This document shows, piece after piece, positions 34,860-55,000 of a DNA stretch of 64,000 nucleotides; within the stretch, counting starts at the first letter, position 1, and each line of letters begins with the position of its first letter. The stretch is from Ostreococcus lucimarinus. Taxonomy: Eukaryota. The notes beneath the pieces are model-generated. The model ran no database searches and was not told the DNA's origin. It saw nothing but the letters and a program-made list of their open reading frames with translations. Made by a program: the position numbers and the translations under genes. The stretch is taken from NCBI GenBank assembly GCA_000092065.1, contig CP000600.1. The stretch is one strand, 5' to 3'.

Positions 34860-35810
34860 CTACGCTAAAAACCTCTTGTGCTCGAGCGTTTTCCTCAGTC
34901 TGTCTGTTTCGGCCGCGAAGCCGGCGATGAACGCATCAAACTCGTCCGCGCCCGATACTATCCTCGAAGGCGGCGGCGGATACTCGTTCGAACTCACCCG
35001 ACGTCGCCGTTGAACATTTGATTTCTGCACCCCGCTCACCGACGCGACCAGATCGCGCATTTCGCGCTCGTGTTTTGCGCGCACCGTCTGCAACTCGTTC
35101 GAGCGCGCCCTTCGTTCCGTCGCGAGCTCCTCCTTGAGCGCGTTGATCTTCTTCGTCTGCCGCTCGCTCTTCGCCTGTAACTTTTTAAGTTCAGTTTCTA
35201 GCTCCTCCACTCGTCGTGTATCGCGCGGTCTCTCCCTCGCGACGACCACTGCCGGATACGAATCCTTCGCGTCGTCGCGAGACACGCGCCGCGACGCCGA
35301 CGCCGACGCCGACGCCTCAATCTCCACCATCCGTCGCATCTCCTCCGCGCGCGCGTCCTCGCCATCACCACTCACGCTCACGCGCACGCATGCGTCCTTC
35401 GCTCTCTCTCGAGCGCCACCACCGATCTCCCGCTCGACGTCGTCCTCGACGACCCTTCGCGTCAAATTCCAACCGACCGCGTCGTCCCTACAAAACCGTC
35501 CCACTCGCCCGCTCGGCGGCGCTCGATCGAACGGCCGCGCCAAACGCGGCGCGGCGTCCGAGCGCGTCGCTCGCAGCATCTCCAGCAGCAACCGCGCGTG
35601 CGCGTTTCTATTCTCCCGCAACGCGCGCACGCGCTCGCGCTGGTCCAGGTGTTGACACCACGCGCGCACGCGAATTCGCGTCGGTTTATCCCGCACCGCG
35701 TCCGCGCGAGCCCGCAGGCATCTCGCCAGTATCGCGTACTCGCGCTCGAGGTCGTCGTCGTCGACGTCCGCCGCGTCCGGCGCGCGCGCGGGCGGCGGCA
35801 TGGAGTGTCC
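34860..35810 (-). CDS. Hypothetical protein with a C-terminal coiled coil
   Basis: ORF 34860..36344 with ATG at 35810 (residue 179). C-terminal ...RRVEELETELKKLQAKSERQTKKINALKEELATERRARSNELQT... is coiled coil. The N-terminal 178 aa of the ORF are R-rich GC artefact. Confidence 0.4.
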   Translation of the reverse strand, partial: GHSMPPPARAPDAADVDDDDLEREYAILARCLRARADAVRDKPTRIRVRAWCQHLDQRERVRALRENRNAHARLLLEMLRATRSDAAPRLARPFDRAPPSGRVGRFCRDDAVGWNLTRRVVEDDVEREIGGGARERAKDACVRVSVSGDGEDARAEEMRRMVEIEASASASASRRVSRDDAKDSYPAVVVARERPRDTRRVEELETELKKLQAKSERQTKKINALKEELATERRARSNELQTVRAKHEREMRDLVASVSGVQKSNVQRRRRVSSNEYPPPPSRIVSGADEFDAFIAGFAAETDRLRKTLEHKRFLA

Positions 35811-35886: not shown

Positions 35887-35930
35887 TCGGTCGATCGATC
35901 GATCGATCGAGCGCGCGAGCGATCGATCGC
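35887..35930. repeat. (GATC)n-rich microsatellite in a divergent promoter
   Basis: tcggtcgatcgatcgatcgatcgagcgcgcgagcgatcgatcg, between the coiled-coil gene start (35810, -) and the giant glycoprotein start (35946, +). Confidence 0.8.
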
Positions 35931-35945
35931 ATCGTGCGCGCCCCG

Positions 35946-38900
35946 ATGGTGACGCGCGGGAGACCGACGCGCGCGCGCGCGATGGACGCCGAGTCGCGAC
36001 GCGCGATGACGGCGGCGCGACGCCATCGCGCGGCGCGCGCGAGCGCGCGAGCGGACGCGGACGCGCGACGCGCGGATGCGGATGCGAAGGCTGCGCGACG
36101 ACGCGCGCGTGGACGCGCGACGCGAGGGCGCGCGAGGGCGTCGATTCGCGCGACGATCGCCGCGCTCGTGGGTGCGTGCGTCGTGATGTGCGTCCCGCGG
36201 GGTGGGTGCGCGGCGGAGGGCGTCGACGCGCACGGCGCGGTGGCGAAGAGAACGTCGACGAACACGAAGAGCGAGGGTGTTGGCGGGATGTTGAATGAGA
36301 TTAGCGAGCTCGTCGAGCGCCAACGCGCGTTTGAAGATGCACACGAGGGGTGTGAGAACGTGAGACTCGTGTTGCTAGAGGCGCCTAAGCGCGGACGGGT
36401 GTCGATCGCGCTTCGCGATGGGTCGAAGCTTTGGCAAAGGTTTGAGTTTCGAGACGCGGGGGCGCAGACGACGTGCGTGGACCTGAGCGAACCGAACGAT
36501 TTTGAAATCACGACCGCGGGCGCGCGAGGCGACGATGATGAGTATTCCATAAGAGTCGAGAAGGAGACGGGCGACGCGTTGCTGATGCGGCTTGGCGCCG
36601 ATGACGAGAATGGAGAGGCGCACACGACGTACGCGGCGCTCAAGCTGAGGACGGCGTCGGGTAAAAACGTGGGCGTTTTAGGTGATCGGTTCGAGTCATG
36701 CGAAGATGTGGTCGTGGACACCGCATTCGCGCGTCACGCAGGCGTCGCGCGAAGCATGCAGCACCGCTTATTGGATGACAGCGGTGACTTGCTGAGCAAG
36801 TGGACAAGCCACGCGACCGGGCAGAAGAAGATGTGCTTGCTTCGAGGTCGCGATTACACGCTCCATCTAAACGGAGCGATGTCTCGTGGACGTGTCGACG
36901 ACCAGTTGGCCGTGAGAGTCACGCGCGAAGAAGGTGATGAAAGCGACGGGTTTACATACTTGACCACGAGATCACAGGCAATGGTGAATGACAAAAATGA
37001 TGTGTACATCGGTGTGCAAGATGCGACGCAAGATAACATCGATTTGCGCGGCGTTTACCACTTTCATATCCCTTCAGCCTGCGCCATGGATGAAGTTGAG
37101 CTTTCTGTCGTTCTGAAAGCGTCGAAGTACGGTGATAGCGTGCCGCCCGAGGGTATGTCCTGGATAGTCCAGGATGAGGCGGGATCGCTCGTCATGAAAA
37201 CGGCGAAGCGGTTTAGGACACAAGACTACGGTGTCACTCGCCATCAGTCCATGTGCGTTCCGAAGGGCAAGTATGAATTCATTGCCTTTGCGTCCGATAA
37301 GAGAGGTTGGAAGTACGGTACTGAGCTCAAGATTTATCAGCGACTGCAGGGGGGTAAGAGACAGCTGCTCGCCTCGAGAGGGGGCAATGAGGAAGCCAGC
37401 GCCAGGGGTTTCTCGGCTCCTTGGTTTAGCGGCGCGTTGATTTCGGAACCGATTGAGCTCAGCGTTGGAACGGAGCAAAGTGCGGTTGCGAGCCAAGACG
37501 AACCATCGGTGAAAATCGCCTTTCAAGGGCCGAAAGCATTGCTTGGAAATGCTCGCTTTGTTCCTTCTCGTGCGTTGGTTCGCGCCGACGTCATGGCAAT
37601 TATTTCCGCGTGCGTCGCCGTGTGTGCGCTCGTTGCGTTACATAACGACACTAAGGATGGAGATGGAGAGGTGAAAATTTCGCTTGTTGATGGCAAAGCC
37701 AATTCAGCGTACGGCACGGACACTGCTAAGAAGACTGACGTCGGCGAGCATGTGTCAAGATCATCGAGCGGCAAAAGTCACGGTTTGGTCTCAAGATCAA
37801 GTTATCTTAAAATAGTGGCTGTCGGAGCATCGGCGCTTTCGGTCATGGCGATTGGCTCGATTGGATCAGTGCGATTAGATGAAACTTCGCGGCTTGGGAA
37901 TTCGACAGTTCGACAAGCGACGTGCGGTATGGGTGTCACAAAATGTCAATTTGTTCACTCTCCCGACTGTAGGAGTAAGACGATGTACGCGTATCGGAGC
38001 GGGAAATTGGCGCATGATCCTTTGCTCGTGCTCCCTTACGAGAGTAGTATCCTCGATGGATCAAGCATTGCTGCTGAAATAAAGTTTGATGCTAATTTCT
38101 GCGCCGTGCAGGGCATGAAGACGTGCAACGATTTGGGGGACACTTCAGCAGATACACTCACTGGCTGCTCTCAGGCGTGCAGAGCGAAGGATGGTTGTGA
38201 GAGTTTTAGTCTTCAAAGTACGGTGTGTCGTCTTTGCAGCACGGAACATGTCTCTCGTAGCGTAGCTACATCCACTGTTTCGGTCGCGCGTTGCATGCGT
38301 CCGTACCAGTTTGCTTTTCAAGGGGTTTCGCTCGATGAATGCGCAAAGGCTTGCGACGACACCGCTGCGTGTCGTGGCTTCAATTATTTTGAGAGGTCTC
38401 ACGCGATGTCTTCTCACTGCAGTCTCCTACGCGCACCTGCCCATTTCGAGGCACACGTCTGGCGAGATAGCGCGAGGACAAAAAGTGGCATCGTGGGCGC
38501 CGCGACATACTACAAGGTTCCAAGCATGGGCACCTTGTGCAAAGAGCGAGGTGAAGCAGTACAAGCACCTGCGCTTCCTTCCGGTTTAGGAATTGGCGAC
38601 TCCGCGGACGATGCAGTCATCACTTCTCGCGATGGTTATCCGCATGACAACTTTTATGCGGGTGACAAGGGATACCCGAATGACGAGGCACGTCCCCCGA
38701 ATCACGACGACAGCGATTTCGTGGCCGATTTCATGATCACGAGCGAAATTGAATTAATCGGCGTTACGGTCCATAGTCTTGAGAGCAATGACGTCTCGCG
38801 GCGTGCATTTGTTAAGGGATTGGCGATATTCTTCGGCATCACTTCTGATGAAGTTGTGATAATGGACGTGACGCCATCACAAGACGTGGGCACATCGCAT

Positions 38901-41900
38901 GGGGTCCATGTCGCATTCGTCATCTTGACCACGTCGTCACACAAGATGTCGCAAGTCGTGGGAGATATCAAGAGCGTGCTCGATGAACCAAACGATGAGG
39001 TTAGACTTCTGTTTAACGGAGCAGGCTTAACCGTCACGAAAGCCACCTTCCAAGAGCCACCATTGGTTACGGAACAGGAGGCAAGTCCGAGTCCGACGGC
39101 GAGTGACGAACTCGTCACGAATGTCTCGACAACTGTCGAAGGTAAGCCCGTGGCTCCGACGGCAAACACAACTCAAACGCCATCGAACGTCACGGAAAAC
39201 GAACCAGTTGCGACGAATTTGCCGCCGACGAGCATTCCTGGCGCGGATCTTGCGATTACGGGTGCTTTGCAGATCGTGGGATATACTCCCGAGGAGTTCG
39301 ACGCCACTGCGCGAGAGAGATTGCGTCGCTCCATGTTGACATTCTTCATGGCTCACAATGATGACATATCGATCGCTCTGATGCAGAACGCTTCGTTAGT
39401 CGAAGGGACTCAAGTGGCTTACAAAATGAAGGAGAATAATCCTCACAAAGCGACGATCATCGTTGAGGCTTTGTTACTGATGCAAGAGCCTAGCGCGATA
39501 TCAGAAAACTTCCTGCACGTCTTGCACTTTAAAGGATTGACAAACGTGCAAACTTCACTTACAATTGGGCATCCTCGCGTGGTTTTAGAGAAGCACATGC
39601 CGCCACCGCCGCCTTCGCCGCCACCGCCACCAAAGACGATTGTCATGGTGCAGAATATCACCAAGACTATCAACGTTGTTCAGTCTGCACTGGAGTTGAA
39701 GGGCATCAACGTGCAAACTTTCAATGAAGCCAAGAAAGACTTTCTGAAAGCCGGTCTGTCGGAGTTCATGAGCAAGGTTTTACAAAGAACAGTGACATCA
39801 GATTTGATCAGAGTCCTTTCCGTCAGTGGGCAAGGCTATATCAAATACTTTGACACCAATATTGTATCTTCGGGGGACGTCGCACAACTCGGAATTTCGT
39901 CATCCAACGTGAAAGTTAATTACGAAGTCATCGTCGGCGAAGAAGAAGACGCAAAGACGATGGCTCTCTTGAATGAATTATCTGGGGGGACGTCGACCCC
40001 GATTTCACGTGATGTCGACCAGGACGTGTACCCGTCAGAGGCGGATGCATACCCGTCAGAGGCGGATGCATATCCAGCAAGATCTCCCCCCATAGAGAGC
40101 GATGACCAATATCCATCGTCGACGTCCAACTCGGACTCGAGTCTCGTCACGAACGACTTACTTGGTACGCTCTTACTTGATATCAAAGAAAACGGCTTGG
40201 CAGAAGTCGAGGAGATCGAGATAGAAGAGTTGCCCGTCGCGAAGAAGCAAGAAGTCTCGGAGCAAGTTGAAATCGAGGTTCTCGCACCTGAGACTTCGAC
40301 GCCGGTCACGGAAGAGGAAGAACTAACAGATCTCAATGATGATGAGACGATAGAAACCAATTTCTTGAAAGCTCTTGACGAGATCAAGGTTTTATCTAAC
40401 GCATCAGATGCGGAAGTGTACTTGGTGGATAGCGTGCTTCGCATTGATGGTTACGACATGAACACATTTGATGCGGTATCCCGTAACGCCTTTACGGCAG
40501 GTATGGCAAGGTTTTTGGGGATTGCATTCGCGCATGTTCGCATAATCGACGTGACAGTAGTTCACACATCGACCGGTCGACGCTTACTGACGGATTTGCT
40601 CGACGTTGAGTTCGTCGCCGAGTTGCCGACTGAAGAGTCTGCCAACGCTGTGGCTCAAGAAATAACTGATCTCATGGACAGTGAAAATGCAGAAGCAATT
40701 CAGAACGAGCTCATGACTGATCTGCAAGAGGCTGGTCTGGATCAAGTGACGAACGGCGAAATGACGCAAGTACCCGTCATATCAAGTGCATCAAGCGAAC
40801 CATCCAGTCCGGTGCCGGGCGAGACGCCGAACGCGTACCCGACACAGAGCCCCGTGCCGGGCGAGACGCCGAACGCGTATCCGACACAGAGCCCCGTGCC
40901 GGGTGAGGCGCCGAACGCGTACCCGACGTCAAGTCCGAACGCGTATCCGACACAGAGCCCCGTGCCGGGCGAGGCGCCGAACGCATATCCGACACAGAGC
41001 CCCGTGCCGGGCGAGGCGCCGAACGCGTACCCGACGCCCAGTCCGAACGCGTATCCGACACAGAGCCCCGTGCCGGGCGAGGCGCCGAACGCGTATCCGA
41101 CACAGAGCCCCGTGCCGGGCGAGGCGCCGAACGCGTACCCGACGCCCAGTCCGAACGCGTATCCGACACAGAGCCCCGTGCCGGGCGAGGCGCCGAACGC
41201 ATATCCGACACAGAGCCCCGTGCCGGGCGAGACGCCGAACGCGTACCCGACGTCAAGTCCGAACGCGTATCCGACACAGAGCCCCGTGCCGGGCGAGGCG
41301 CCGAACGCATATCCGACACAGAGCCCCGTGCCGGGCGAGGCGCCGAACGCGTACCCGACGCCCAGTCCGAACGCGTATCCGACACAGAGCCCCGTGCCGG
41401 GCGAGGCGCCGAACGCATATCCGACACAGAGCCCCGTGCCGGGCGAGACGCCGAACGCGTACCCGACGTCAAGTCCGAACGCGTATCCGACACAGAGCCC
41501 CGTGCCGGGCGAGGCGCCGAACGCGTACCCGACGCCCAGTCCGAACGCGTATCCGACACAGAGCCCCGTGCCGGGCGAGGCGCCGAACGCGTATCCGACA
41601 CAGAGCCCCGTGCCGGGCGAGGCGCCGAACGCGTACCCGACGCCCAGTCCGAACGCGTATCCGACACAGAGCCCCGTGCCGGGCGAGGCGCCGAACGCAT
41701 ATCCGACACAGAGCCCCGTGCCGGGCGAGACGCCGAACGCGTACCCGACGTCAAGTCCGAACGCGTATCCGACACAGAGCCCCGTGCCGGGCGAGGCGCC
41801 GAACGCATATCCGACACAGAGCCCCGTGCCGGGCGAGACGCCGAACGCGTACCCGACGTCAAGTCCGAACGCGTATCCGACACAGAGCCCCGTGCCGGGC

Positions 41901-44900
41901 GAGGCGCCGAACGCGTATCCGACACAGAGCCCCGTGCCGGGCGAGGCGCCGAACGCGTACCCGACGCCCAGTCCGAACGCGTATCCGACACCGAGCCCCG
42001 TGCCGGGCGAGACGCCGAACGCGTATCCGACACAGAGCCCCGTGCCGGGCGAGGCGCCGAACGCATATCCGACACAGAGCCCCGTGCCGGGCGAGACGCC
42101 GAACGCGTACCCGACGTCAAGTCCGAACGCGTATCCGACACAGAGCCCCGTGCCGGGCGAGGCGCCGAACGCATATCCGACACAGAGCCCCGTGCCGGGC
42201 GAGACGCCGAACGCGTACCCGACGTCAAGTCCGAACGCGTATCCGACACAGAGCCCCGTGCCGGGCGAGGCGCCGAACGCATATCCGACACAGAGCCCCG
42301 TGCCGGGCGAGACGCCGAACGCGTACCCGACGCCCAGTCCGAACGCGTATCCGACACAGAGCCCCGTGCCGGGCGAGGCGCCGAACGCGTATCCGACACA
42401 GAGCCCCGTGCCGGGCGAGGCGCCGAACGCGTACCCGACGCCCAGTCCGAACGCGTATCCGACACAGAGCCCCGTGCCGGGCGAGGCGCCGAACGCGTAT
42501 CCGACACAGAGCCCCGTGCCGGGCGAGGCGCCGAACGCGTACCCGACGCCCAGTCCGAACGCGTATCCGACACAGAGCCCCGTGCCGGGCGAGGCGCCGA
42601 ATGCGTACCCGACGCCCAGTCCGAACGCGTACCCGACGCCCAGTCCGAGTGCGTACCCGACGCCCAGTCCAGAAGGTCCTTGCGAAGCCGTTTGCGCAGC
42701 GTTGAATAGTAAGAGCGGGCCAAACAATACAGCATCATGCGATATTCACTTTGGTTGCGTCTTTGACCACACGCAGATGAGCGGTCAAGGAGCGTGCATC
42801 TCTTTTGCGGCTGGTGGCGACGAACCTTGTCCTTCTCGAGCCGACTGGGATGCTATTGTACCTGGCCAAGACTGCAACACTGAGAACACGCCCACGTGCG
42901 CTCGGTTGTTTTACGGCGATGAATACGACAACGCAGTGGCTGGTACCCTTCCAGAGGACTGGGTCGGCGATTGGAGTGCGGTGCCGACACCAGAACCGTC
43001 AGTGCCTAGCGACAGTCATCCGACAACGGATTCGCATGCGTCTTTCTACCCAGCATCGAGCCCCGTGCCGGGCGAGACGCCGAACGCGTACCCGACGTCA
43101 AGTCCGAACGCGTATGACGTCGGTACGATGTCGTACGAAGAGTACGTGAAGACATACGGGGAGGATTTGGATGAAATTGCGAGCGCGTATCCGACACCGA
43201 GCCCCGTGCCGGGCGAGGCGCCGAACGCGTACCCGACGTCAAGTCCGAACGCGTATCCGACACAGAGCCCCGTGCCGGGCGAGGCGCCGAACGCGTATCC
43301 GACACAGAGCCCCGTGCCGGGTGAGGCGCCGAACGCGTACCCGACGTCAAGTCCGAACGCGTATGACGTCGGTACGATGTCGTACGAAGAGTACGTGAAG
43401 ACATACGGGGAGGATTTGGATGAAATTGCGAGCGCGTATCCGACACCGAGCCCCGTGCCGGGCGAGGCGCCGAACGCGTACCCGACGTCAAGTCCGAACG
43501 CGTATCCGACACAGAGCCCCGTGCCGGGCGAGGCGCCGAACGCGTATCCGACACAGAGCCCCGTGCCGGGTGAGGCGCCGAACGCGTACCCGACGTCAAG
43601 TCCGAACGCGTATGACGTCGGTACGATGTCGTACGAAGAGTACGTGAAGACATACGGGGAGGATTTGGATGAAATTGCGAGCGCGTATCCGACACCGAGC
43701 CCCGTGCCGGGCGAGGCGCCGAACGCGTACCCGACGTCAAGTCCGAACGCGTATCCGACACAGAGCCCCGTGCCGGGCGAGGCGCCGAACGCGTATCCGA
43801 CACAGAGCCCCGTGCCGGGTGAGGCGCCGAACGCGTACCCGACGTCAAGTCCGAACGCGTATCCGACACAGAGCCCCGTGCCGGGCGAGGCGCCGAACGC
43901 ATATCCGACACAGAGCCCCGTGCCGGGCGAGACGCCGAACGCGTACCCGACGTCAAGTCCGAACGCGTATCCGACACAGAGCCCCGTGCCGGGCGAGGCG
44001 CCGAACGCGTATCCGACACAGAGCCCCGTGCCGGGCGAGACGCCGAACGCGTATCCGACACAGAGCCCCGTGCCGGGTAAGGCGCCGAACGCGTACCCGA
44101 CGTCAAGTCCGAACGCGTATCCGACACAGAGCCCCGTGCCGGGCGAGGCGCCGAACGCATATCCGACACAGAGCCCCGTGCCGGGCGAGACGCCGAACGC
44201 GTACCCGACGTCAAGTCCGAACGCGTATCCGACACAGAGCCCCGTGCCGGGCGAGGCGCCGAACGCGTATCCGACACAGAGCCCCGTGCCGGGTGAGACG
44301 CCGAACGCGTACCCGACACCGAGCCCCGTGCCGGGCGAGACGCCGAACGCGTACCCGACACCGAGCCCCGTGCCGGGCGAGACGCCGAACGCATATCCGA
44401 CACCGAGCCCCGTGCCGGGTGAGACGCCGAACGCGTACCCGACACCGAGCCCCGTGCCGGGCGAGGCGCCGAACGCGTACCCGACACAGAGCCCCGTGCC
44501 GGGCGAGGCGCCGAACGCATATCCGACACAGAGCCCCGTGCCGGGCGAGACGCCGAACGCGTACCCGACGTCAAGTCCGAACGCGTATCCGACACAGAGC
44601 CCCGTGCCGGGCGAGACGCCGAACGCGTATCCGACGCCAAGTCCGAGCGCGTTCCCGACACCGAGCCCCGTGCCGGGCGAGACGCCAGCGGTAGGTCCGA
44701 CATATTCCGAACCGATCGCACAAATCGTGTATGAGACAAAGAGTGTGGTTAGACTTGTTGGCTACCACGCAGGCGCATTTGGCGAAACGCAGAGTCGGCT
44801 TTTCAAAGTTGGCATGGCCACATTTTACAAAGTCGCGCCAGAGGACATAAGCATCAGCTCTGTGAAGGATGTCGTCTCGTCGAGTAGTCGACGACTATTG

Positions 44901-45938
44901 CAAACATCGGCGATCGATGTGAACTACACCGTGACCTCGACGACGATCGAAAGTGTGTTAGAAGTCGCCAATCAAACCAACTCTGCTGTGACCACGACGC
45001 AAGGCGAAGTTTATGATGACTTACGCGCCGCCGGTTTGATCATCAGCGATGCCGTGATATTGTTGGAAGCACAAACTACTGAGAAAGCATCAGCGTTGGC
45101 ACCTTCGGGGCCATACGACATCAACGTCAACCTTCATCTTGACGTCGACGTCCACGTGGACAATGCGCCAGCGTCGCGTGAGCCTACGAGTTCAACACCT
45201 GGGGGAAATCCAGCTGACACGGAAGGCGGATATCCCTCGACGCCCACGTCATCCTATCCGGCGGGCGGATATCCCTCGACGCCCACGTCATCCTATCCGG
45301 CGGGCGGATATCCCTCGACGCCCACGTCATCCTATCCGGCGGGCGGATATCCCTCGACGCCCACGTCATCCTATCCGGCGGGCGGATATCCCTCGACGCC
45401 CACGTCATCCTATCCGGCGGCGCCTTCTGACTGTGTTCCAGTGAACACGGAAACAGAAGCGGCGCAATACTATCGAAACGAGTCGTTACAACACGAGGCA
45501 CTCGAAACGGCGCAGTCCTACGCTCGTCAAAATGATTTACCACTTCCGGACGCGCACACCTTTGTTCGTGCAAAGGTTTGCAACGCACCGCACATGCGAT
45601 GTTGCTCTGAGTTGAACTGGCGACAAGACAATCGAGTGAGATTTCCATTTGTCTGCGGTGACAGCGCGGGATGCGCAAAGAAGACGTTCGACGTCGCTAG
45701 AAAGAATTGTGTCGCCAGAGGTGGTGACTTGTGCCGCGGAAACGCGGTGAGTACGTCGATGCACGATCCATCGTGCGTGGGCACTAAGTCAGATTACGTA
45801 TGGACGCTCACGCACTGCGATGTCAATGGCGTGCACGGTCGCGTCATTCGTCCGAGCGCCGGCGGCGCGCCCGGAGCACTTTGCGAGACGAATCTGATGG
45901 CAAACCATCAGTCGAGATGCTGCTCCAACGTGTGTTGA
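35946..45938 (+). CDS. Giant secreted / cell-surface glycoprotein (about 3330 aa). PAN/apple domains, repeated domain modules of about 100 aa, an extensin-like PPPPSPPPPP motif, a massive Pro-rich tandem-repeat array, and a Cys-rich C-terminal domain.
   Basis: Single ORF 35934..45938, where 35934 is GTG and the first ATG is at 35946. A hydrophobic signal-like segment IAALVGACVVMCV sits about 75 aa in. Two PAN/apple-like Cys patterns occur around 37900-38500. Modules of the form I.GY....FDA..R......MA.FLGIA..HVRIIDVT recur at least four times. More than 90 copies of PVPGE(A/T)PNAYPT(Q/S/P)S and SPNAYPTQS units span 40805-44690. The C-terminus has 20 or more cysteines (...CSELNWRQD...CCSNVC). 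Confidence 0.75.
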   Translation: MVTRGRPTRARAMDAESRRAMTAARRHRAARASARADADARRADADAKAARRRARGRATRGRARASIRATIAALVGACVVMCVPRGGCAAEGVDAHGAVAKRTSTNTKSEGVGGMLNEISELVERQRAFEDAHEGCENVRLVLLEAPKRGRVSIALRDGSKLWQRFEFRDAGAQTTCVDLSEPNDFEITTAGARGDDDEYSIRVEKETGDALLMRLGADDENGEAHTTYAALKLRTASGKNVGVLGDRFESCEDVVVDTAFARHAGVARSMQHRLLDDSGDLLSKWTSHATGQKKMCLLRGRDYTLHLNGAMSRGRVDDQLAVRVTREEGDESDGFTYLTTRSQAMVNDKNDVYIGVQDATQDNIDLRGVYHFHIPSACAMDEVELSVVLKASKYGDSVPPEGMSWIVQDEAGSLVMKTAKRFRTQDYGVTRHQSMCVPKGKYEFIAFASDKRGWKYGTELKIYQRLQGGKRQLLASRGGNEEASARGFSAPWFSGALISEPIELSVGTEQSAVASQDEPSVKIAFQGPKALLGNARFVPSRALVRADVMAIISACVAVCALVALHNDTKDGDGEVKISLVDGKANSAYGTDTAKKTDVGEHVSRSSSGKSHGLVSRSSYLKIVAVGASALSVMAIGSIGSVRLDETSRLGNSTVRQATCGMGVTKCQFVHSPDCRSKTMYAYRSGKLAHDPLLVLPYESSILDGSSIAAEIKFDANFCAVQGMKTCNDLGDTSADTLTGCSQACRAKDGCESFSLQSTVCRLCSTEHVSRSVATSTVSVARCMRPYQFAFQGVSLDECAKACDDTAACRGFNYFERSHAMSSHCSLLRAPAHFEAHVWRDSARTKSGIVGAATYYKVPSMGTLCKERGEAVQAPALPSGLGIGDSADDAVITSRDGYPHDNFYAGDKGYPNDEARPPNHDDSDFVADFMITSEIELIGVTVHSLESNDVSRRAFVKGLAIFFGITSDEVVIMDVTPSQDVGTSHGVHVAFVILTTSSHKMSQVVGDIKSVLDEPNDEVRLLFNGAGLTVTKATFQEPPLVTEQEASPSPTASDELVTNVSTTVEGKPVAPTANTTQTPSNVTENEPVATNLPPTSIPGADLAITGALQIVGYTPEEFDATARERLRRSMLTFFMAHNDDISIALMQNASLVEGTQVAYKMKENNPHKATIIVEALLLMQEPSAISENFLHVLHFKGLTNVQTSLTIGHPRVVLEKHMPPPPPSPPPPPKTIVMVQNITKTINVVQSALELKGINVQTFNEAKKDFLKAGLSEFMSKVLQRTVTSDLIRVLSVSGQGYIKYFDTNIVSSGDVAQLGISSSNVKVNYEVIVGEEEDAKTMALLNELSGGTSTPISRDVDQDVYPSEADAYPSEADAYPARSPPIESDDQYPSSTSNSDSSLVTNDLLGTLLLDIKENGLAEVEEIEIEELPVAKKQEVSEQVEIEVLAPETSTPVTEEEELTDLNDDETIETNFLKALDEIKVLSNASDAEVYLVDSVLRIDGYDMNTFDAVSRNAFTAGMARFLGIAFAHVRIIDVTVVHTSTGRRLLTDLLDVEFVAELPTEESANAVAQEITDLMDSENAEAIQNELMTDLQEAGLDQVTNGEMTQVPVISSASSEPSSPVPGETPNAYPTQSPVPGETPNAYPTQSPVPGEAPNAYPTSSPNAYPTQSPVPGEAPNAYPTQSPVPGEAPNAYPTPSPNAYPTQSPVPGEAPNAYPTQSPVPGEAPNAYPTPSPNAYPTQSPVPGEAPNAYPTQSPVPGETPNAYPTSSPNAYPTQSPVPGEAPNAYPTQSPVPGEAPNAYPTPSPNAYPTQSPVPGEAPNAYPTQSPVPGETPNAYPTSSPNAYPTQSPVPGEAPNAYPTPSPNAYPTQSPVPGEAPNAYPTQSPVPGEAPNAYPTPSPNAYPTQSPVPGEAPNAYPTQSPVPGETPNAYPTSSPNAYPTQSPVPGEAPNAYPTQSPVPGETPNAYPTSSPNAYPTQSPVPGEAPNAYPTQSPVPGEAPNAYPTPSPNAYPTPSPVPGETPNAYPTQSPVPGEAPNAYPTQSPVPGETPNAYPTSSPNAYPTQSPVPGEAPNAYPTQSPVPGETPNAYPTSSPNAYPTQSPVPGEAPNAYPTQSPVPGETPNAYPTPSPNAYPTQSPVPGEAPNAYPTQSPVPGEAPNAYPTPSPNAYPTQSPVPGEAPNAYPTQSPVPGEAPNAYPTPSPNAYPTQSPVPGEAPNAYPTPSPNAYPTPSPSAYPTPSPEGPCEAVCAALNSKSGPNNTASCDIHFGCVFDHTQMSGQGACISFAAGGDEPCPSRADWDAIVPGQDCNTENTPTCARLFYGDEYDNAVAGTLPEDWVGDWSAVPTPEPSVPSDSHPTTDSHASFYPASSPVPGETPNAYPTSSPNAYDVGTMSYEEYVKTYGEDLDEIASAYPTPSPVPGEAPNAYPTSSPNAYPTQSPVPGEAPNAYPTQSPVPGEAPNAYPTSSPNAYDVGTMSYEEYVKTYGEDLDEIASAYPTPSPVPGEAPNAYPTSSPNAYPTQSPVPGEAPNAYPTQSPVPGEAPNAYPTSSPNAYDVGTMSYEEYVKTYGEDLDEIASAYPTPSPVPGEAPNAYPTSSPNAYPTQSPVPGEAPNAYPTQSPVPGEAPNAYPTSSPNAYPTQSPVPGEAPNAYPTQSPVPGETPNAYPTSSPNAYPTQSPVPGEAPNAYPTQSPVPGETPNAYPTQSPVPGKAPNAYPTSSPNAYPTQSPVPGEAPNAYPTQSPVPGETPNAYPTSSPNAYPTQSPVPGEAPNAYPTQSPVPGETPNAYPTPSPVPGETPNAYPTPSPVPGETPNAYPTPSPVPGETPNAYPTPSPVPGEAPNAYPTQSPVPGEAPNAYPTQSPVPGETPNAYPTSSPNAYPTQSPVPGETPNAYPTPSPSAFPTPSPVPGETPAVGPTYSEPIAQIVYETKSVVRLVGYHAGAFGETQSRLFKVGMATFYKVAPEDISISSVKDVVSSSSRRLLQTSAIDVNYTVTSTTIESVLEVANQTNSAVTTTQGEVYDDLRAAGLIISDAVILLEAQTTEKASALAPSGPYDINVNLHLDVDVHVDNAPASREPTSSTPGGNPADTEGGYPSTPTSSYPAGGYPSTPTSSYPAGGYPSTPTSSYPAGGYPSTPTSSYPAGGYPSTPTSSYPAAPSDCVPVNTETEAAQYYRNESLQHEALETAQSYARQNDLPLPDAHTFVRAKVCNAPHMRCCSELNWRQDNRVRFPFVCGDSAGCAKKTFDVARKNCVARGGDLCRGNAVSTSMHDPSCVGTKSDYVWTLTHCDVNGVHGRVIRPSAGGAPGALCETNLMANHQSRCCSNVC
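40805..44690 (+). repeat. Coding tandem-repeat array with 42-nt and 27-nt units (PVPGEAPNAYPTQS / SPNAYPTQS), near-identical at DNA level. It is interrupted at 42670-43060 by a unique Cys-containing segment and contains a 249-bp higher-order repeat in three copies (about 43117-43863).
   Basis: Direct reading of the period: ccgacacagagccccgtgccgggcgaggcgccgaacgcgtat recurs with only A/T (Ala/Thr) and wobble differences. DVGTMSYEEYVKTYGEDLDEIASAYPTPS recurs three times with exact 249-nt spacing. Confidence 0.9.
45226..45420 (+). repeat. Five tandem 39-nt coding repeats (GGYPSTPTSSYPA)
   Basis: ggcggatatccctcgacgcccacgtcatcctatccggcg is repeated five times, nearly perfectly. Confidence 0.85.
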
Positions 45939-45978: not shown

Positions 45979-47052
45979 CTATATAGACCTCATGTCATCG
46001 AGCAGTAATTCGGCGAGGAAACTCGTCGCCGGCCCCACGCGCCCATCGCCTACCTGCCGTCCATCCCACGAAATGATTCCCTGCACACCCACCGCACTGC
46101 CGACGAGCATGGCTTCCTCAGCGCCCAGCACGACGAACGGGGATAACGGCTGTGAATCGTCGAAGCGTTTTATTCCCACCTTTCGGAGCGCTTTGCGATT
46201 GCTTTCGGTTTCGATCAACTCTCGCAGTCTTTGTATGGTGATTCCTCCGAGAACATTCGTCGCTGGTGGCGTTCGTAACGTGCCGTCTGGAGTCAGGAAC
46301 GCTACGTTCGCGCCAGGTCCTTCGCCAATCATTCCGTCTTGCGTCAAAAATACGCCGACATCGACCCCGTTCCCTCGCGCAATCTGAGCTACGTTTACGT
46401 TGGGCAAGTAATTCGTCGACTTCAACGTCGCGTAACGAGGCGGTTTGATCGGCACCGGCGACGACGACGCCGTTAACCCGCGCACAACCATCCAAGCGTC
46501 TGGATCCTTCTCGTACGCCACGACGTAATACGTCGGCGGCGAATCCGTCGCGCCGCACAGCGAAAAATTCTCCGACTCGCACCCGCTCGTCGCGTACATC
46601 CGAACTTGCCCGTGCGTCACGCCGCCCCGCGCCACGACTTCCAGCACCAGCGCCTCCATCGTCGCCAGCGCCTCGTCGTTCATCTCGCCGACGCCCGCCT
46701 CCCGCGCGCTTCGCGCGAATCTTCTCAGGTGCGCCGCCAACAGATGGCACCGTCCCTCGTGCACCGTGCACGCGTCGAACACGGCGTGCCCGCGCGTGAA
46801 TCCACGGTCGTACAGTCGCATCACCGGCGCGCATCGCGCGTCGTTCACTCGCACGATGACGTCCAGCGCGCCGTCGTACACCGCGCCGCGCATGGTCGCC
46901 GCCGCGTCGTGCTGCGCCACGAGGCGCCGCGCCACCTCTCTCGCGTACGCATCCGCGTCCACGACGCGCGTCGCGCGCGCCGTCGTTCGACGCGTCGTCG
47001 CGCGCGCGCGTCCCGCGACGCGCGGCGCGGCGCGCGCGCGAGCCGTCGTCAT
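45979..47052 (-). CDS. Class IV (fold-type IV) PLP-dependent aminotransferase. Branched-chain aminotransferase, D-amino-acid aminotransferase or aminodeoxychorismate-lyase-like.
   Basis: ATG at 47052..47050. ...RGHAVFDACTVHEGRCHLLAAHLRRF..., GEGPGANVAF (E.G..N.F motif), and ...NVLGGITIQRLRELIE... match the class IV aminotransferase layout. R-rich N-terminus. Confidence 0.7.
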   Translation of the reverse strand: MTTARARAAPRVAGRARATTRRTTARATRVVDADAYAREVARRLVAQHDAAATMRGAVYDGALDVIVRVNDARCAPVMRLYDRGFTRGHAVFDACTVHEGRCHLLAAHLRRFARSAREAGVGEMNDEALATMEALVLEVVARGGVTHGQVRMYATSGCESENFSLCGATDSPPTYYVVAYEKDPDAWMVVRGLTASSSPVPIKPPRYATLKSTNYLPNVNVAQIARGNGVDVGVFLTQDGMIGEGPGANVAFLTPDGTLRTPPATNVLGGITIQRLRELIETESNRKALRKVGIKRFDDSQPLSPFVVLGAEEAMLVGSAVGVQGIISWDGRQVGDGRVGPATSFLAELLLDDMRSI

Positions 47053-47105: not shown

Positions 47106-47160
47106 ATAACCCTAACCCTAACCCTAACCCTAGTCCTAACCCTAATTTACAAACCCTAAT
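47106..47160. repeat. Interstitial telomere-type repeat (CCCTAA)4 plus degenerate copies, including an AAACCCTAA telo-box-like motif, in a 128-bp bidirectional promoter
   Basis: Read directly: taaccctaaccctaaccctaaccctagtcctaaccctaatttacaaaccctaat. It lies between the aminotransferase start (47052, -) and the SET gene start (47181, +). Confidence 0.9.
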
Positions 47161-47180: not shown

Positions 47181-48635
47181 ATGCGCGACGCGCGCGACGA
47201 CGACTTTCTCGATTGGATGCGCGCGCGCGGGGTGACGCGCGACGACGCGCGGTGCGCGGTGCGCGGCGACGGCGACCGCGGACGATTCGTCGAGTGCGCG
47301 CGCGCGACGCTGGCGGTCGGGACGACGCTGGCGACGATACCGAAGAGCGCGTGCCTGACGACGGCGACGAGCGCGCTGGGCGCCATCGAGGGCGCGCGCG
47401 GAAGCGGGGTCGTCGGTCTGTGCGTCGCGGTGGCGCACGAGCGGTCGTTGGGAGCGAAATCGACGTTTGCGGCGTATTTAAAGACGCTGCCGGCGCGAGA
47501 GGCGCTGCCGTCGACGTTCGCGGCGGACGACGAGGCGCGGAGAGCGCTGCGGGGGACGACGGTGGAGGGGATGCTCGGGGCGGACGAACGCGCCATCGCG
47601 GATGATTATCACGCGTTCGCGCGCGAGATGAAGGAGCGATTCGCGCGGCGCGGCGTGAAGATGCCGACGCTGGAGGAGTTCAGGGACGCGGCGACGCTCG
47701 TCGCGAGTCGCGCGTTCTTCGTGGACGACGCGCTCGGGCAGGGGTTGGTGCCTTTCGCTGATTTGTTTAATCATAAAGGCGGTTCAGACGGCGCTCATTT
47801 TAACGTCGTTGGATGCGATGACGCGGACGCGGATGCGCTGACGCTGGTGACGTGTCGAACGGCGAAGCGGGGCGAAGAATTATTCAACTCGTTCGGCGAC
47901 GACCACGACAACACCGTGTTGTTGTATAAATATGGGTTTGTCGAACGCGATAATCGCGTCGCTACGAGTTCATTCGGCTTTGGGCTGTTGCGCGACGCCG
48001 GCGACATCTCGTTCGAGAGCGTTCATAGTTGGATGACTGAGAGTTACGACGGGGTGGATGAGCTCGAAGTCGACGCCAACGGCGCCATGTCGCGCCCACT
48101 TTTAGCTTTACTTCGAATCGCGTCGTTCGAATTTCTTAGAGACGTGGACAGCGGTGATGACGAAAGTCATTCGGACGATGTAGACTATGATACATCGATC
48201 GGCGTTTTGCTCGAGCGCACGATGGCCGGAGACGAGTCCGAGGCTGAGATTCTGGCGAGTGTCGACGACTACGTCGTACTGGCGTTATTTCGTGGAAGAT
48301 TCAACGCATATCTCGACACAAAAGACGAAGATCGTTGTGATGACGATGTTTCATCTTTGTTACGAGATGTAGCGCGCGAGATCAAACGATGCGCAGACTT
48401 GGCGAATGATGCGAGCGGAGTACGTCAACAGTTTGGGTCTGGGATAAGCGGCGTGGCCGCTGCGTATCACGTTCGCGCGGACGAGCTCGGGTTACTCATG
48501 AAAGCAATAATTCGCGCGTTTGACTTCGGAGACGACGAAGAAACCAACGAAGACGTTCCAGATACAAAAAAGCCCAAATTAGTAGAAGTGGTGCCAGCGT
48601 ACGCGCCGACCATTTACATCAAACCGAAAGAGTAG
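47181..48635 (+). CDS. SET-domain protein lysine methyltransferase (SETD6 / Rubisco-LSMT-like)
   Basis: ATG at 47181. N-terminal FLDWMRARGV...VRGDGDRGRFVE..., the core ...GLVPFADLFNH...GEELFNSFG..., then a substrate-binding-like helical C-terminal half. Confidence 0.75.
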   Translation: MRDARDDDFLDWMRARGVTRDDARCAVRGDGDRGRFVECARATLAVGTTLATIPKSACLTTATSALGAIEGARGSGVVGLCVAVAHERSLGAKSTFAAYLKTLPAREALPSTFAADDEARRALRGTTVEGMLGADERAIADDYHAFAREMKERFARRGVKMPTLEEFRDAATLVASRAFFVDDALGQGLVPFADLFNHKGGSDGAHFNVVGCDDADADALTLVTCRTAKRGEELFNSFGDDHDNTVLLYKYGFVERDNRVATSSFGFGLLRDAGDISFESVHSWMTESYDGVDELEVDANGAMSRPLLALLRIASFEFLRDVDSGDDESHSDDVDYDTSIGVLLERTMAGDESEAEILASVDDYVVLALFRGRFNAYLDTKDEDRCDDDVSSLLRDVAREIKRCADLANDASGVRQQFGSGISGVAAAYHVRADELGLLMKAIIRAFDFGDDEETNEDVPDTKKPKLVEVVPAYAPTIYIKPKE

Positions 48636-51997: not shown

Positions 51998-52054
51998 CTA
52001 AGAATTAGTATTCATTGTGGAAACAATTGTTTTCGACTCTACTGCGTGGTTTCT

Positions 52055-55000
52055 CTATCGTGCGCCAGAGGACGCACATCCCGTCGTGGAGGCGCTGTAG
52101 CCTTCGTTACACGTGCAGGTCGGTACGTTCGCATCGTTAAGCCCGCAAGTTCCGAAACCAGAACACGTCGTTCCCGCCGCGACGTCGTATCCAGGGCATT
52201 TGATGACGCAATAATCTCCAAGTTCGGTGGTGGTAGTGTCGAAAATCCCAGCGCACGTGACGCGCAGCTGCGCCGGATCTTGCTTGCACGCATCGCCCAA
52301 ACTCGCGTCTGGATCGCCGGTGAGGTACCATTTGCCCTTACACACACTCGGCCGCATGCTTTCGTAAAGCTCATCGAGGTACGCGACAGAGTAATCGTTT
52401 TTGTATTGTCTGTAGTAGTTGAACAGCGAGATTTGACGTTGTTCTTCGGCATTCACGTCCACAAACGTCCCGATACCAAACGAATCGAACCGAATGGACT
52501 CGCCCACAACTGTGGCCGAAGGATCCACTGCTTCTTGAACGTAATAGTCGGCTCGCACCAAAATTTCTGTGAGCGACGCCAAGCACCAAGCAAGATCGCT
52601 AAATGTGGCAGGGTTACCAGTCCGCGATAGACGGTTCGCCACAACTGCCTCGTAAACCTCTGGATAAACATCAAAGTCGAGGCGATCTCGCGCAATCTCT
52701 CTACCACTCGATTGCTGTAGTACTGTACCACCATCACTTCGACCAGTCGTATCTGTGACGATGGGTATGTCTGCAGCTAAGTTAAGCGTCGCCGCCGTCA
52801 AACCGGAAAATGGGTCATAGGGATTACCTGAGGTTCGAGTGGTGTAGACCGTTCCGTCCATGTAATGCACAGCGGGATCATTCGACCACTTGAACCCTGA
52901 AAGGACTGGCTCCAGGTTTTTCCATCCTGCACTTTCCAAGAGATCAACCTTGAAATTCAAACCGCATCTCGCCGCAGAGCAAGACGTCGGCGGATACCCC
53001 TTTTGATCAGAGTCAATTTTATATCCAAGAAAGACTTGCGGTGTGTTGAGGTACTGTTCCACGATTGCTATGGTCTGCGCACGCGAGAGTTGCTGATTCA
53101 GCCCGAGCTCTGGGAAATTTGTTCGGCTCCAATTATACACTTGATCGCGAGAACCCCACACTGGCACTTCGCGGTTGTACCGCGGTCGACCGCCCATGAG
53201 AATGATATCGTACGCCGATGTTTGATGCGCCTCCACATGCGCGGTCCCCGCGTTTGCCGCAGAATTTGCCGCTGACTCCACCATATACAATGAATACGTT
53301 ATCGAAGCGCCGTATGCATTTTTACTCAGCAAATCACCCGTGAATTTTTCGGGTGCGCGCAAGTACGCGAGTCCGTTCGTGGAATCGTCCGTCAACTTGT
53401 CCGTGAGGTGTAGATATCCGCTTATCCCTTCCCAGAGTAACCCGCTGTCGCCACCTGCGAACGCAAAATTGCACTCTCCGCGCATCAATTGCTCCGAATT
53501 GATCGCGAACGGGTCGTAGACATTGCCAGATAAAATTGATTCGGCGAGCTCACCCGAGCACGAATTATTGTACACCGTCCAGCCCTCTGGTCCCTCCGTG
53601 AATTCAGATTTGACGATGAATGAAGAAGCCTCGGGCCGAGAGCAGTCGACAAACGACCAACCATCTTGACATGCACACGATCCGTCCATCTGACAGTAGC
53701 CATTAACGCAAGGGTTACATTGAACATCGCAAGACAACCCAGTCCAACCGACGTCGCATTTGCACGTACCGTCGGTGAGGCAAGCGCCGTGATCGTAATT
53801 GCATGGGAGACATTCCGTAAAATTTCGAATGTCACAAGTCGTGCCCAACCATCCTTTATTGCAAAGGCAAGTGCTGTCTGCTTGGCACGCGCCGTTGTGG
53901 CACGGAGCACAGGGTACGAAACAATCTTCGCCAGAATATTGTACCCCTCCATCGTCGGTACCGCACACGCAAGTCCCGTCTCGCTTGCAGAATCCCCATG
54001 ATCGAATCTGCACTCCGTGTGCGGTCGTTTTGATGACTTCGGAAACACTACCATCTTCATTTGTGGCGTACTCTTTGAAGCAATTGCAGGACTTGTCACA
54101 CCTTTCTCCGTACCAACCGGTTTCACATTCGCACTTGCCATTCAGTTGACACGTCCCGTGATCTGGATCACACGCGTCGCACGCAATGGAACATGTTGTT
54201 CCCGTATAGGCGCCTGTTAATCCGGAATTCACACCGTGGATAAGCGTATTGATGATCCAAATCATTGTACGATCCGCGCCTGTCGTGCGCGTGGTCACAT
54301 ATTCTCCACTAGTCGCATCGTACATACCCGCTAGGAAGACGTTCATCAAACGCTGTCGCTCGTCTTTACTGTTTGTGTACCAGCGCTCCTGATCGGATGA
54401 CTCTGTCGCTATTTTTAGATCTACTCGAGTGGCTCCGATTGCTTCTTTACGCATCCGTAAGAAATGCGCCTTCAATGCGTCGTCGCAGTCCCAAGGATTG
54501 GCAGCTTCCCAGTCGTCGCCGCAGTTTGTGGTCGACGCGAGCGAAGCCATGCATTCGCCCGTCGTTGCGTCATTTTTATAGTCCAATTTCGAACAGATAT
54601 CGTCCGCGCGCATTGATTCGGGGATGTTGACAATGTCGTTTTGATACTGCAGAAGCTGCGCCTCGAGTGCGGTGCGAGTGGCTGCCCCAACGGCGTCAGC
54701 GGCGGTGGTTACACCGTACCGAAAGTACGTTTCATTTGGTCTGAAGGGTAACTTGGAATCAATTGTGCGGCTCGCGCAGTCAGGGCGATCAGCGCATACG
54801 GAATCGACGCCCCAGACGTAGTCTTCCACTTGAATCGCACTCATGTAATAAGGAGGAATGTACTCTCCCGAAGCTAGTTCACCGTTGGTTGCGTAATGTG
54901 GATCGCGATCAAGACGCAGAGCGAATGAGTGATCTCTAAGCCGTCTCGTTCCGTCGCACAGGCAACTACCGTCGTACTGACACGTGCCGTGAACACACGG

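Follow-up and report, generated by a model that had tools for sequence, protein, structure and literature searches.

A giant, repeat-rich protein of Ostreococcus lucimarinus as a candidate membrane-tethered, mucin-like surface fibril

An open reading frame (ORF) at 35946 (ATG) to 45938 on the + strand of the window (the whole 64,000-nucleotide stretch of DNA that was analyzed, nuclear DNA of Ostreococcus lucimarinus CCE9901) encodes a single giant protein of 3,330 aa. Its domains and composition make an extracellular location and heavy O-glycosylation very probable, and we favor, with moderate confidence, the explanation that the protein is a membrane-tethered, mucin-like (arabinogalactan-protein [AGP]-like) surface fibril of this wall-less alga. 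Ostreococcus, the smallest free-living eukaryote, serves as a model for marine picophytoplankton and their giant viruses, and its surface molecules are, to our knowledge, almost unknown. For the main fibrous component of the cell's coat, the gene is a candidate that is both conserved and testable.

Gene model and conservation

The first-pass annotation had proposed one giant ORF, and indeed, the + strand is open for an uninterrupted 9,990 nt. The annotated coordinates of 35946 to 45938 hold, but the annotated length of 3,334 aa counts from a mechanical GTG start at 35934. Gene calls in relatives begin at each of three in-frame ATGs, and the actual start may be any one of them. Long ORFs in other frames or on the opposite strand within the arrays were rejected as by-products of stop-free repeats. 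The proteins encoded next to the gene are identical to RefSeq entries of O. lucimarinus CCE9901. For the RefSeq annotation of the locus itself, look-ups by exact sequence and by way of the neighbors yielded only short contigs from metagenomes or SRA. The features of the gene, with the evidence for each in parentheses, are as follows.

35946..45938, + strand: complete coding sequence, 3,330 aa plus stop, no introns required (ORF list and translation; relatives)
35946..36137, + strand: Arg-rich N-terminal tail, aa 1-64, 21 Arg, predicted cytosolic (composition)
36138..36215, + strand: hydrophobic segment 1, aa 65-90, predicted signal anchor or signal peptide (Kyte-Doolittle 19-residue mean, 2.06)
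36216..37568, + strand: ectodomain 1, aa 91-541, three Cys pairs spaced 41-58 residues (40% identity to ortholog)
37569..37871, + strand: predicted transmembrane hairpin, segment 2 (aa 542-569), 51-aa loop, segment 3 (aa 621-642) (Kyte-Doolittle)
37872..38585, + strand: Cys-rich region with two PAN/apple domains, aa 643-880, 16 Cys (Pfam; 55% identity to ortholog)
38730..39062, + strand: module copy 1, aa 929-1039, without RRLL (HMM)
39252..39599, + strand: module copy 2, aa 1103-1218, without RRLL (HMM)
39603..39632, + strand: PPPPSPPPPP linker, aa 1220, sole contiguous-proline motif (translation)
39675..40241, + strand: module copy 3, aa 1244-1432, split by an acidic insertion of ~55 aa (HMM match in two pieces)
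40422..40781, + strand: module copy 4, aa 1493-1612, RRLL in the loop between strands 2 and 3 (HMM; AlphaFold)
40809..42668, + strand: array A, aa 1622-2241, mostly a long-long-short 108-nt higher-order unit (TRF, tokenizing)
42669..43061, + strand: Cys-rich island between the arrays, aa 2242-2372, 131 aa, 8 Cys
43062..44666, + strand: array B, aa 2373-2907, includes a 249-nt higher-order repeat (TRF, tokenizing)
44733..45086, + strand: module copy 5, aa 2930-3047, RRLL (directly C-terminal of array B)
45225..45420, + strand: five GGYPSTPTSSYPA units, 100% identical in DNA (TRF)
45426..45935, + strand: C-terminal Cys-rich domain, aa 3161-3330, 14 Cys (77% identity to distant ortholog)

This architecture is common to 16 relatives (80 to 99% identity) and to one syntenic, more distant ortholog (38% identity), and a continuous ORF is called in the relatives and in the ortholog as well. 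[quoted passage not shown] The C-terminal domain had been described as a Cys-rich knot. It is Cys rich, but aa 3158 to 3330 matched no Pfam family at an E value of ≤10, Cys_knot (CTCK) included, and the knot is therefore not upheld. A profile of the orthologs of this domain found no PDB sequence match, and the AlphaFold model (pLDDT of 35) was unusable. Only seven close homologs were found. A C-type-lectin-like identity was also considered for it and was dropped for want of support.

The single-gene model could be an artefact. The ORF might be an in-frame fusion of a gene for a type I membrane protein, which would end at aa ~600, with one for a secreted giant; it might be a pseudogene; or the assembly might have given the array a wrong size. 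Hydrophobic segment 2 (MAIISACVAVCALVAL) is signal-peptide-like and follows an in-frame Met, the arrays break or collapse in short-read assemblies, and an exact look-up of the 3,330-aa product found no database record. However, the 9,990-nt ORF is intact, the same junction is also uninterrupted in the 38%-identical ortholog and both flanks of each array hold conserved domains in one frame. Moreover, long arrays of 74 and at least 54 units are present on two other chromosome-scale or long contigs. Against this evidence, we consider an artefact very unlikely.

Predicted membrane anchoring, PAN/apple domains and repeat arrays

Three strongly hydrophobic segments that are kept in the ortholog predict membrane anchoring, and a purely secreted protein is not supported. 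The Kyte-Doolittle means of segments 2 and 3 are 2.46 and 1.88, respectively, and the ortholog keeps both segments together with the SAYGT motif in the loop. The basic stretch in front of segment 1 is 45 to 65 aa long, which is unusual for a signal peptide, and the N-terminal tail is weakly conserved in the ortholog. Hydropathy by itself suggests the following topology: the Arg-rich N terminus would stay in the cytosol, hydrophobic segment 1 would carry the 450-aa ectodomain outside, and the hairpin (aa 542 to 642) would anchor the protein in the membrane, with the other 2,690 aa being extracellular. Ectodomain 1 has no Pfam match at an E value of ≤10, and BLASTP self-comparison of this domain found no internal repeat. 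The whole protein has 12 N-glycosylation sequons.

PAN/apple domains had been proposed as well, and when aa 643 to 882 were scanned alone, two stretches exceeded the Pfam gathering scores, with 29.4 bits for PAN_4 (PF14295; gathering score, 27) and 26.2 bits for PAN_1 (PF00024; gathering score, 21.4); when the whole protein was scanned, the only matches were PAN ones below threshold. These two modules are the likeness to PAN/apple adhesins (plasminogen/HGF N-domains and apicomplexan micronemal proteins), but the PAN part covers only ~240 aa, a small share of the Ostreococcus protein. The PAN domains, the paired Cys-rich domains, the N-glycosylation sequons and the Pro/Thr/Ser-rich arrays together support the annotation of the protein as extracellular.

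Strict tokenizing of the arrays, as assembled, gave 87 units, 60 of 14 aa (PVPGE[AT]PNAYPT[QSP]S) and 27 of 8 aa (PNAYPT[QSP]S). Since degenerate copies inside the 33-aa inserts bring the number to ~93, the earlier count of more than 90 is defensible. TRF detected a 108-nt period with 16.5 copies and 94% matches, a 249-nt repeat from 43058 to 43862 with 3.2 copies, 99% matches and one acidic, Tyr-rich 33-aa insert per copy, and a 39-nt repeat with 5.0 copies and 100% matches. Thus, the three-copy higher-order repeat of 249 nt and the five identical GGYPSTPTSSYPA units were both found as described. The mean pairwise identity is 0.90 for the long and 0.95 for the short units, with only 16 DNA variants among the 60 long units, and to call the repeats "almost perfectly homogenised" somewhat overstates the case.

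The arrays are mucin-like and AGP-like, with putative O-glycosylation. As in mucins, there is a long tandem-repeat domain (1,155 aa) that is rich in Pro, Thr and Ser (46 to 50%) and variable in repeat number. Pro, Ala, Ser and Thr together make up 57 to 62% (0.62 in array A, 0.57 in array B), and every proline stands in an SP, AP, TP, VP or YP context. Array A, for example, has 51 SP, 34 VP, 24 AP, 23 TP and no PP dipeptides. More than 50% Pro, Ala, Ser and Thr and noncontiguous SP, AP, TP and VP are what the arrays share with AGPs and other nonextensin hydroxyproline-rich glycoproteins (HRGPs). Unlike AGPs, the protein is far larger, is a chimera with many folded domains, has Tyr-Pro and Asn in every unit and ends in a Cys-rich sequence (...CCSNVC) with no C-terminal hydrophobic or glycosylphosphatidylinositol (GPI) signal. 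"Extensin-like" applies to the single PPPPSPPPPP motif, which is real and has a poly-Pro counterpart at the equivalent place in the ortholog, but not to the arrays, which contain no Pro-Pro; the 3,330 aa include one SPPP and, outside the arrays, one incidental YAY. The lack of contiguous prolines thus makes the arrays AGP-like or mucin-like, not extensin-like.

The first-pass annotation had suggested a secreted structural HRGP that belongs to a cell wall or to body scales, and such a protein would also have Pro-rich arrays and the PPPPSPPPPP motif. We know of no body scales in the genus Ostreococcus. The sequenced prasinophytes, including O. lucimarinus, are considered wall-less, a point which "deserves a closer study" (PMC3797821). 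For these two reasons, the wall or scale function is unsupported. Orthologs of extensin-type glycosyltransferases, namely the Hyp-arabinosyltransferases GT77 RRA and XEG113, are reported in all analyzed algae, including O. lucimarinus (PMC3797821). They would fit such a function and, as glycosylation machinery, also the favored surface fibril, but the arrays have neither contiguous prolines nor SP3-5 repeats and the only YXY lies outside them. Since, in addition, a membrane anchor is predicted from the conserved hydrophobic segments within the protein, we regard a wall or scale protein as unlikely.

The recurring module and its predicted fold

[quoted passage not shown] At least four copies had been noted, with no known family; the module is real, and the actual number is five. 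A module HMM built mostly from other proteins, with a few ortholog fragments in the set, recovered all five with domain E values of 6e-16 to 6e-8. Copy 4, directly N-terminal of array A, is missing from the distant ortholog, and the insertion in copy 3 holds a perfect 21-nt duplication that gives YPSEADA twice (TRF, 40029 to 40072).

The module had no match in Pfam or among PDB sequences, as had been stated, and by its sequence it is a family absent from Pfam. DUF7036, which was hit by module 1 with an E value of 0.1, was discarded because neither other copies nor other family members gave this match; a literature search found no paper on DUF7036. The module profile retrieved 429 representative proteins at an E value of ≤1e-3, so at least this many lie outside Pfam coverage. 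Members of the family occur in green algae as well as in other protists (Apatococcus, Rhodelphis), and many are metagenome proteins. The family signature is G-Y..x4..F, F..G.A..LG, V.I..V, RRLL, V.F.V and AGL. In 84 of the 140 nonorthologous members, a hydrophobic segment and then a short tail follow the module, the segment starting at a median of 19.5 aa behind it. A Rhodelphis member with ankyrin repeats, a PH domain and ten modules, however, appears to be cytosolic.

AlphaFold modeled copy 4 with a pLDDT of 90.2 and a pTM of 0.83 as strand-helix-strand-strand-helix-helix-strand. The predicted fold matches that of the SEA/membrane-adjacent domains (MADs) of animal mucins and cadherins: it is a four-stranded alpha/beta sandwich of the strand-helix-strand-strand-helix-strand type, and its closest structural neighbors are the divergent SEA/MAD group, at 5 to 15% identity. 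However, this alpha/beta sandwich is a very common fold, and Foldseek returned no match at an E value of ≤1e-3 with the model. Pfam SEA (PF01390) did not match any of the five copies at an E value of ≤10, nor was it found in ten other module-bearing proteins. We tie the module to SEA/MAD domains because of the predicted fold and its usual juxtamembrane position in the family, a position which is typical of SEA domains (PMC13184263). The divergent group (Pei and Grishin 2017, cited in PMC11527881, PMC10327162 and PMC13184263) includes dystroglycan, sarcoglycans, PCDH15 MAD12, CDH23 MAD28, CELSR MAD, Notch HD, Nup54 and plant CARD1/HPCA1. In contrast to its members, the module is a separate sequence family with its own signature and an extra helix, and both homology and convergence stand as explanations of the likeness.

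In animal mucins, cadherins, dystroglycan and Notch, SEA/MAD domains govern shedding and mechanosensing. The autoproteolysis motif GS[VI]VV is absent from the whole protein; modules 4 and 5 carry RRLL in the equivalent loop, and RRLL is present in most family members, in the hairpin that corresponds to the SEA self-cleavage site. Many accepted SEA domains likewise have no G/S[VI]VV motif. It is conceivable, if rather doubtful, that the module is an undescribed SEA/MAD branch in which the conserved dibasic RRLL loop replaces GSVVV to give a protease-dependent "cleave-and-hold" joint; the RRLL copies that bracket the stalk would then hold glycocalyx fibrils noncovalently at either end and let them go upon force, grazing or virus attachment. 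If so, the mucin design of SEA fold, variable Pro/Thr/Ser stalk and tether either predates animals or arose twice. With the link to SEA/MAD domains, ancient versus convergent origin of the device becomes testable.

With the animal transmembrane mucins MUC1, MUC16 and their relatives, the protein shares no sequence homology. It differs from them in the lack of G/S[VI]VV, in repeats that combine plant-type noncontiguous Pro with Tyr, in its PAN domains and in its unique Cys-rich head. Its predicted anchor is an internal hairpin and not a C-terminal helix, and its modules are not juxtamembrane, module 1 starting 287 aa beyond the hairpin and the others extending to ~2,300 aa from it. No relevant paper emerged from literature searches on SEA domains or mucins, whether in Ostreococcus or in algae.

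Proposed surface fibril, alternative functions and repeat turnover

For topology, glycosylation, surface location, possible cleavage and biological role, we infer the following arrangement of the proposed membrane-tethered fibril. From the membrane outward, the ectodomain would consist of the two PAN domains, four modules with Pro-rich and acidic linkers, ~1,155 aa of repeats around the Cys-rich island, the fifth module, a short Tyr/Pro/Ser/Thr repeat and the conserved Cys-rich head. The repeats would be hydroxylated and/or O-glycosylated and form an extended stalk of ~0.3 µm, which would push the head into the medium and build a glycocalyx. Modules 4 and 5, which carry RRLL and flank the stalk, may be joints that bear force or that "cleave and hold" in the manner of SEA domains.

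The layout also recalls sexual agglutinins. The Chlamydomonas glycoproteins SAG1 and SAD1 have more than 3,000 aa, globular heads and a rod-like, Pro-rich shaft, and by analogy with them, the protein, which is of similar size and head-shaft-head layout and specific to the green-algal lineage, could be an adhesion fibril for gamete or cell-cell recognition. However, the shafts of SAG1, SAD1 and other fibrous chlorophyte HRGPs have contiguous-Pro (PPSPX-type) motifs, whereas the prolines of the arrays here are noncontiguous. Recognition heads normally diverge fast, but no part of this protein is as well conserved as its distal head (77% versus 31 to 55% elsewhere), and the neighbors of the locus, which is on a syntenic chromosome, are housekeeping genes and not those of a mating-type region. 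We know of no observation of sex in Ostreococcus cultures. On balance, we give the agglutinin analogy little chance.

The repeats turn over fast, as the earlier annotation implied from their near-identity. Comparison of relatives of 95 to 99% identity showed that unit numbers and their order and arrangement vary on long contigs, and in the 38%-identical ortholog, the equivalent place is taken by units of unrelated sequence (STSPEPG and others). We infer that stalk length and composition change fast via unequal recombination of the 24-, 42-, 108- and 249-nt units. In line with the suspected proneness to assembly errors, the arrays are where short-read assemblies break or collapse, and much of the observed variation arises from such collapse. 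A role as attachment receptor, or as shed decoy or barrier, for prasinoviruses, with virus pressure driving the turnover, would agree with variation among near-identical strains and with a protein that would be the outermost cell structure. The prasinovirus receptor, including that of OtV5, has not been identified, and in O. tauri, resistance has been correlated with alterations in glycosylation genes (PMC5082852). However, any minisatellite-type coding array is expected to vary in its repeats, and we found no viral protein with a related fold; we judge a virus-related role to be improbable. For practical use, the arrays are a natural hypervariable marker for strain typing as well as a known trap in short-read assembly.

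Other repeated elements differ in number, too. The Cys-rich island is present once here, three times in a 95%-identical relative and not at all in the distant ortholog. Units of the GGYPSTPTSSYPA type number 0 to 6 in other versions of the gene, with six in P0095 and five in P0110, and L001 has a single variant GGNPSTPTSSYPA unit.

A conserved open frame for a probable giant surface protein

The gene lies on the plus strand in a single open frame that runs in the window from a GTG at 35934 to 45938. Its first ATG, at 35946, is the start chosen by the first-pass annotation and gives a product of 3,330 aa. Exact protein look-up found no identical entry for this product, and a protein search returned 16 relatives with 80 to 99% identity and one ortholog with 38% identity. 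Five of the neighboring ORFs have exact database sequences, two of them the O. lucimarinus CCE9901 RefSeq proteins XP_001422699 and XP_001422546, which identifies the window as nuclear DNA from this marine picoalga. Gene order is common to the window, the locus of the 95%-identical relative (L001) and that of the 38% ortholog (L002): sugar transporter, M32 peptidase, DUF4485 gene, the giant, class IV aminotransferase, further genes and a giant of the teneurin type with EGF repeats. A gene-model or assembly artefact, the least weighty of four alternatives considered, is disfavored by conservation of the frame; 9,990 nt without stops, kept in the 38% ortholog, are not due to chance. ORFs in other frames within the repeat arrays are by-products of the repeats.

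A (TCGA)n microsatellite (11.8 copies, 35887-35934) lies directly upstream of the ATG, in the divergent intergenic region of ~144 nt common to the giant and the DUF4485 gene (34860-35801, minus strand).

A proposed mucin-like stalk between membrane and head

The best reading of the giant is a membrane-tethered, mucin-like coat fibril with the following parts.

Features of the giant (aa positions, gene on the plus strand)
643-880, two PAN domains, scoring above Pfam thresholds
929-1039, module copy 1
1103-1218, module copy 2
1244-1432, module copy 3, with an insertion
1493-1612, module copy 4
1622-2241, repeat array A, from protein tokenising
between arrays A and B, Cys-rich island of 131 aa with eight Cys
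2373-2907, repeat array B, from protein tokenising
2930-3047, module copy 5

The protein has strong hydrophobic stretches at aa 65-90, 542-569 and 621-642, all three of them conserved in the 38% ortholog, as is an SAYGT motif in the loop joining the second and third. Ectodomain 1 (aa 91-541) had no Pfam match, and the C-terminal Cys-rich domain, or head, matched neither Pfam nor PDB sequences, had only seven close homologs and gave a failed structure model (pLDDT 35). Identity to the 38% ortholog was 77% in this head, 55% in the PAN domains, 40% in ectodomain 1 and 31 to 42% in the modules; that ortholog lacks counterparts of both module 4 and the island. An agglutinin-like adhesion fibril, second in weight among the alternatives, is disfavored by the conservation of the head. 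A virus receptor or decoy, third in weight, is attractive because the receptor of OtV5 is not known (PMC5082852), but we found no evidence for it.

In this assembly the arrays comprise 60 long units of 14 aa and 27 short units of 8 aa. A long-long-short unit of 108 nt makes up most of array A, and array B holds 249-nt units in three copies, all of which carry an acidic, Tyr-rich insert of 33 aa. The first-pass annotation had described this three-copy higher-order repeat, five GGYPSTPTSSYPA units and near-perfect homogenisation. The first two were found as described, and homogenisation holds for the 249-nt copies (99% alike) and the 39-nt GGYPSTPTSSYPA units (all five identical), whereas long units, whose 60 copies represent only 16 DNA variants, have an average pairwise identity of 0.90 and short units one of 0.95. 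GC3 is 0.75 to 0.83 in the arrays versus 0.54 to 0.59 in the non-repeat part. A perfect 21-nt tandem duplication (YPSEADA twice, 40029-40072) within the acidic insertion of module 3 shows that small-scale slippage acts outside the main arrays, too.

The arrays contain 26 to 30% Pro, 46 to 50% Pro+Thr+Ser and 57 to 62% Pro+Ala+Ser+Thr. A composition count found no Pro-Pro dipeptide in them, each Pro being preceded by Ser, Ala, Thr, Val or Tyr. Judged by residue composition, this is an arabinogalactan-protein or mucin pattern and not that of an extensin. The extensin-like PPPPSPPPPP motif reported earlier does exist, but only once, in the linker joining modules 2 and 3, and contains the only SPPP of the protein. 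The heaviest alternative, a wall or scale protein, was the reading of the first-pass annotation and is disfavored by host biology and the predicted membrane anchor. The sequenced prasinophytes, O. lucimarinus among them, have been termed wall-less, and extensin arabinosyltransferase orthologs have been reported from all analyzed algae, O. lucimarinus included (PMC3797821); Hyp-Araf4 was undetected in O. tauri (PMC5371791).

In a membrane-tethered coat fibril, the PAN domains would lie near the membrane and the conserved head would be distal, with a fast-evolving glycosylated stalk between. An extended stalk rises by ~0.25 to 0.3 nm per residue, and from 1,155 residues we estimate a stalk length of ~0.3 µm.

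The predicted proneness of the locus to assembly collapse was borne out: metagenome versions from short reads are collapsed to 3 to 21 units, some without the island, and short-read contigs break at the array. P0095, a version of 3,093 aa on a 545-kb contig, carries 74 units arranged in another order, along with a single 249-nt unit and six GGYPS units. In the 95%-identical relative (363-kb contig) the units number at least 54, the island is present three times and GGNPS once, and the 249-nt insert is missing; the 38% ortholog carries unrelated units (STSPEPG, STSQYYPSSNNEPGSTSTVPG and others) at the same position. Long arrays are therefore a natural feature of the gene, and the differences in unit number and order among relatives, long contigs included, show their rapid turnover.

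In L001 (10001-19269), the gene call is split into 2,726 and 370 aa by a frameshift close to where array B ends; the gene is truly disrupted there or the sequence is in error. In L002 (10001-16939), the gene call P0017 finishes in an out-of-frame Arg-rich tail. The conserved Cys-rich head is present in other members of its cluster, such as P0135 (2,425 aa), so a frameshift close to the 3' end of P0017 is probable.

A module family absent from Pfam

The first-pass annotation had recognized at least four module copies and assigned them to no known family. Alignment and profile gave five, with 17 to 33% identity; a single-sequence search with copy 5 matched copy 4 (E 4e-9). When a profile built from nine copies (five from the giant, four from the 38% ortholog) was searched against 1.84 billion representatives, it matched 429 proteins at E≤1e-3, of which 41 reached E≤1e-10. 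A second profile, made from 154 modules taken from these matches, mostly from other proteins with a few ortholog fragments, matched all five giant copies (E 6e-16 to 6e-8) and nothing else in the window. The module had no Pfam family in the giant or in ten other members and no match among PDB sequences, in agreement with the earlier view; at the sequence level, it is a family not in Pfam. The members with species names belong to Apatococcus lobatus, a green alga, and Rhodelphis limneticus. The R. limneticus transcript product P0148 has ankyrin repeats, PH-like regions and ten module-matching stretches. It has no obvious signal or membrane segments, and thus some branches may be intracellular, like Nup54, a member of the SEA group.

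The AlphaFold model of copy 4 was confident (pLDDT 90.2, pTM 0.83), with a predicted strand-helix-strand-strand-helix-helix-strand topology. One module only is present in 125 of 149 wider-family proteins, and in 84 of 140 non-orthologous members a hydrophobic segment starts a median of 19.5 aa past the module, followed by a tail (median, 6 aa). SEA domains typically sit directly ahead of the membrane (PMC13184263). In the best reading, the modules, whose predicted fold belongs to the SEA/membrane-adjacent domain (MAD) group, would act as joints of the fibril.

Some of the most conserved positions of the family (Arg 85%, Arg 55%, Leu 56%, Leu 72%) lie in the loop that connects strands 2 and 3, and in the giant RRLL occurs only in copies 4 and 5, which flank the stalk. 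Many SEA domains cleave themselves in a beta-hairpin, the pieces staying associated (PMC10327162), and a conserved Arg site is predicted within an exposed loop of the MAD-like domain of PKHD1L1 (PMC11527881). The GS[VI]VV motif is absent from the whole giant. We hypothesize that cleavage may occur at the RRLL loop.

Neither SEA-fold domains nor mucin-like proteins of the cell surface are new in kind; the giant is a variant restricted to its lineage and distinct in layout, and literature searches on SEA domains, mucins, Ostreococcus and algae found no description of it or of the module.

Other features of the window

The teneurin-type giant (52055-58420, minus strand; 2,121 aa), a second surface-type protein with EGF repeats, lies 6 kb downstream of the mucin-like one and is syntenic in L001 and L002; the protein collection contains versions of 2,091 and 2,121 aa. 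An ATG ORF of 1,310 aa (5612-9544, minus strand) had no Pfam family, and its exact sequence was absent from the protein collection. GC content falls to 0.51 to 0.54 at 6001-8000, 38001-40000 and 52001-58000, inside the three largest ORFs, versus ~0.60 to 0.70 elsewhere. A telomere-like run of 6.5 TAACCC hexamers (47107-47145) lies in the 128-nt gap of a divergent pair, the class IV aminotransferase gene (45979-47052, minus strand) and a SET-domain-like gene (47181-48635, plus strand).
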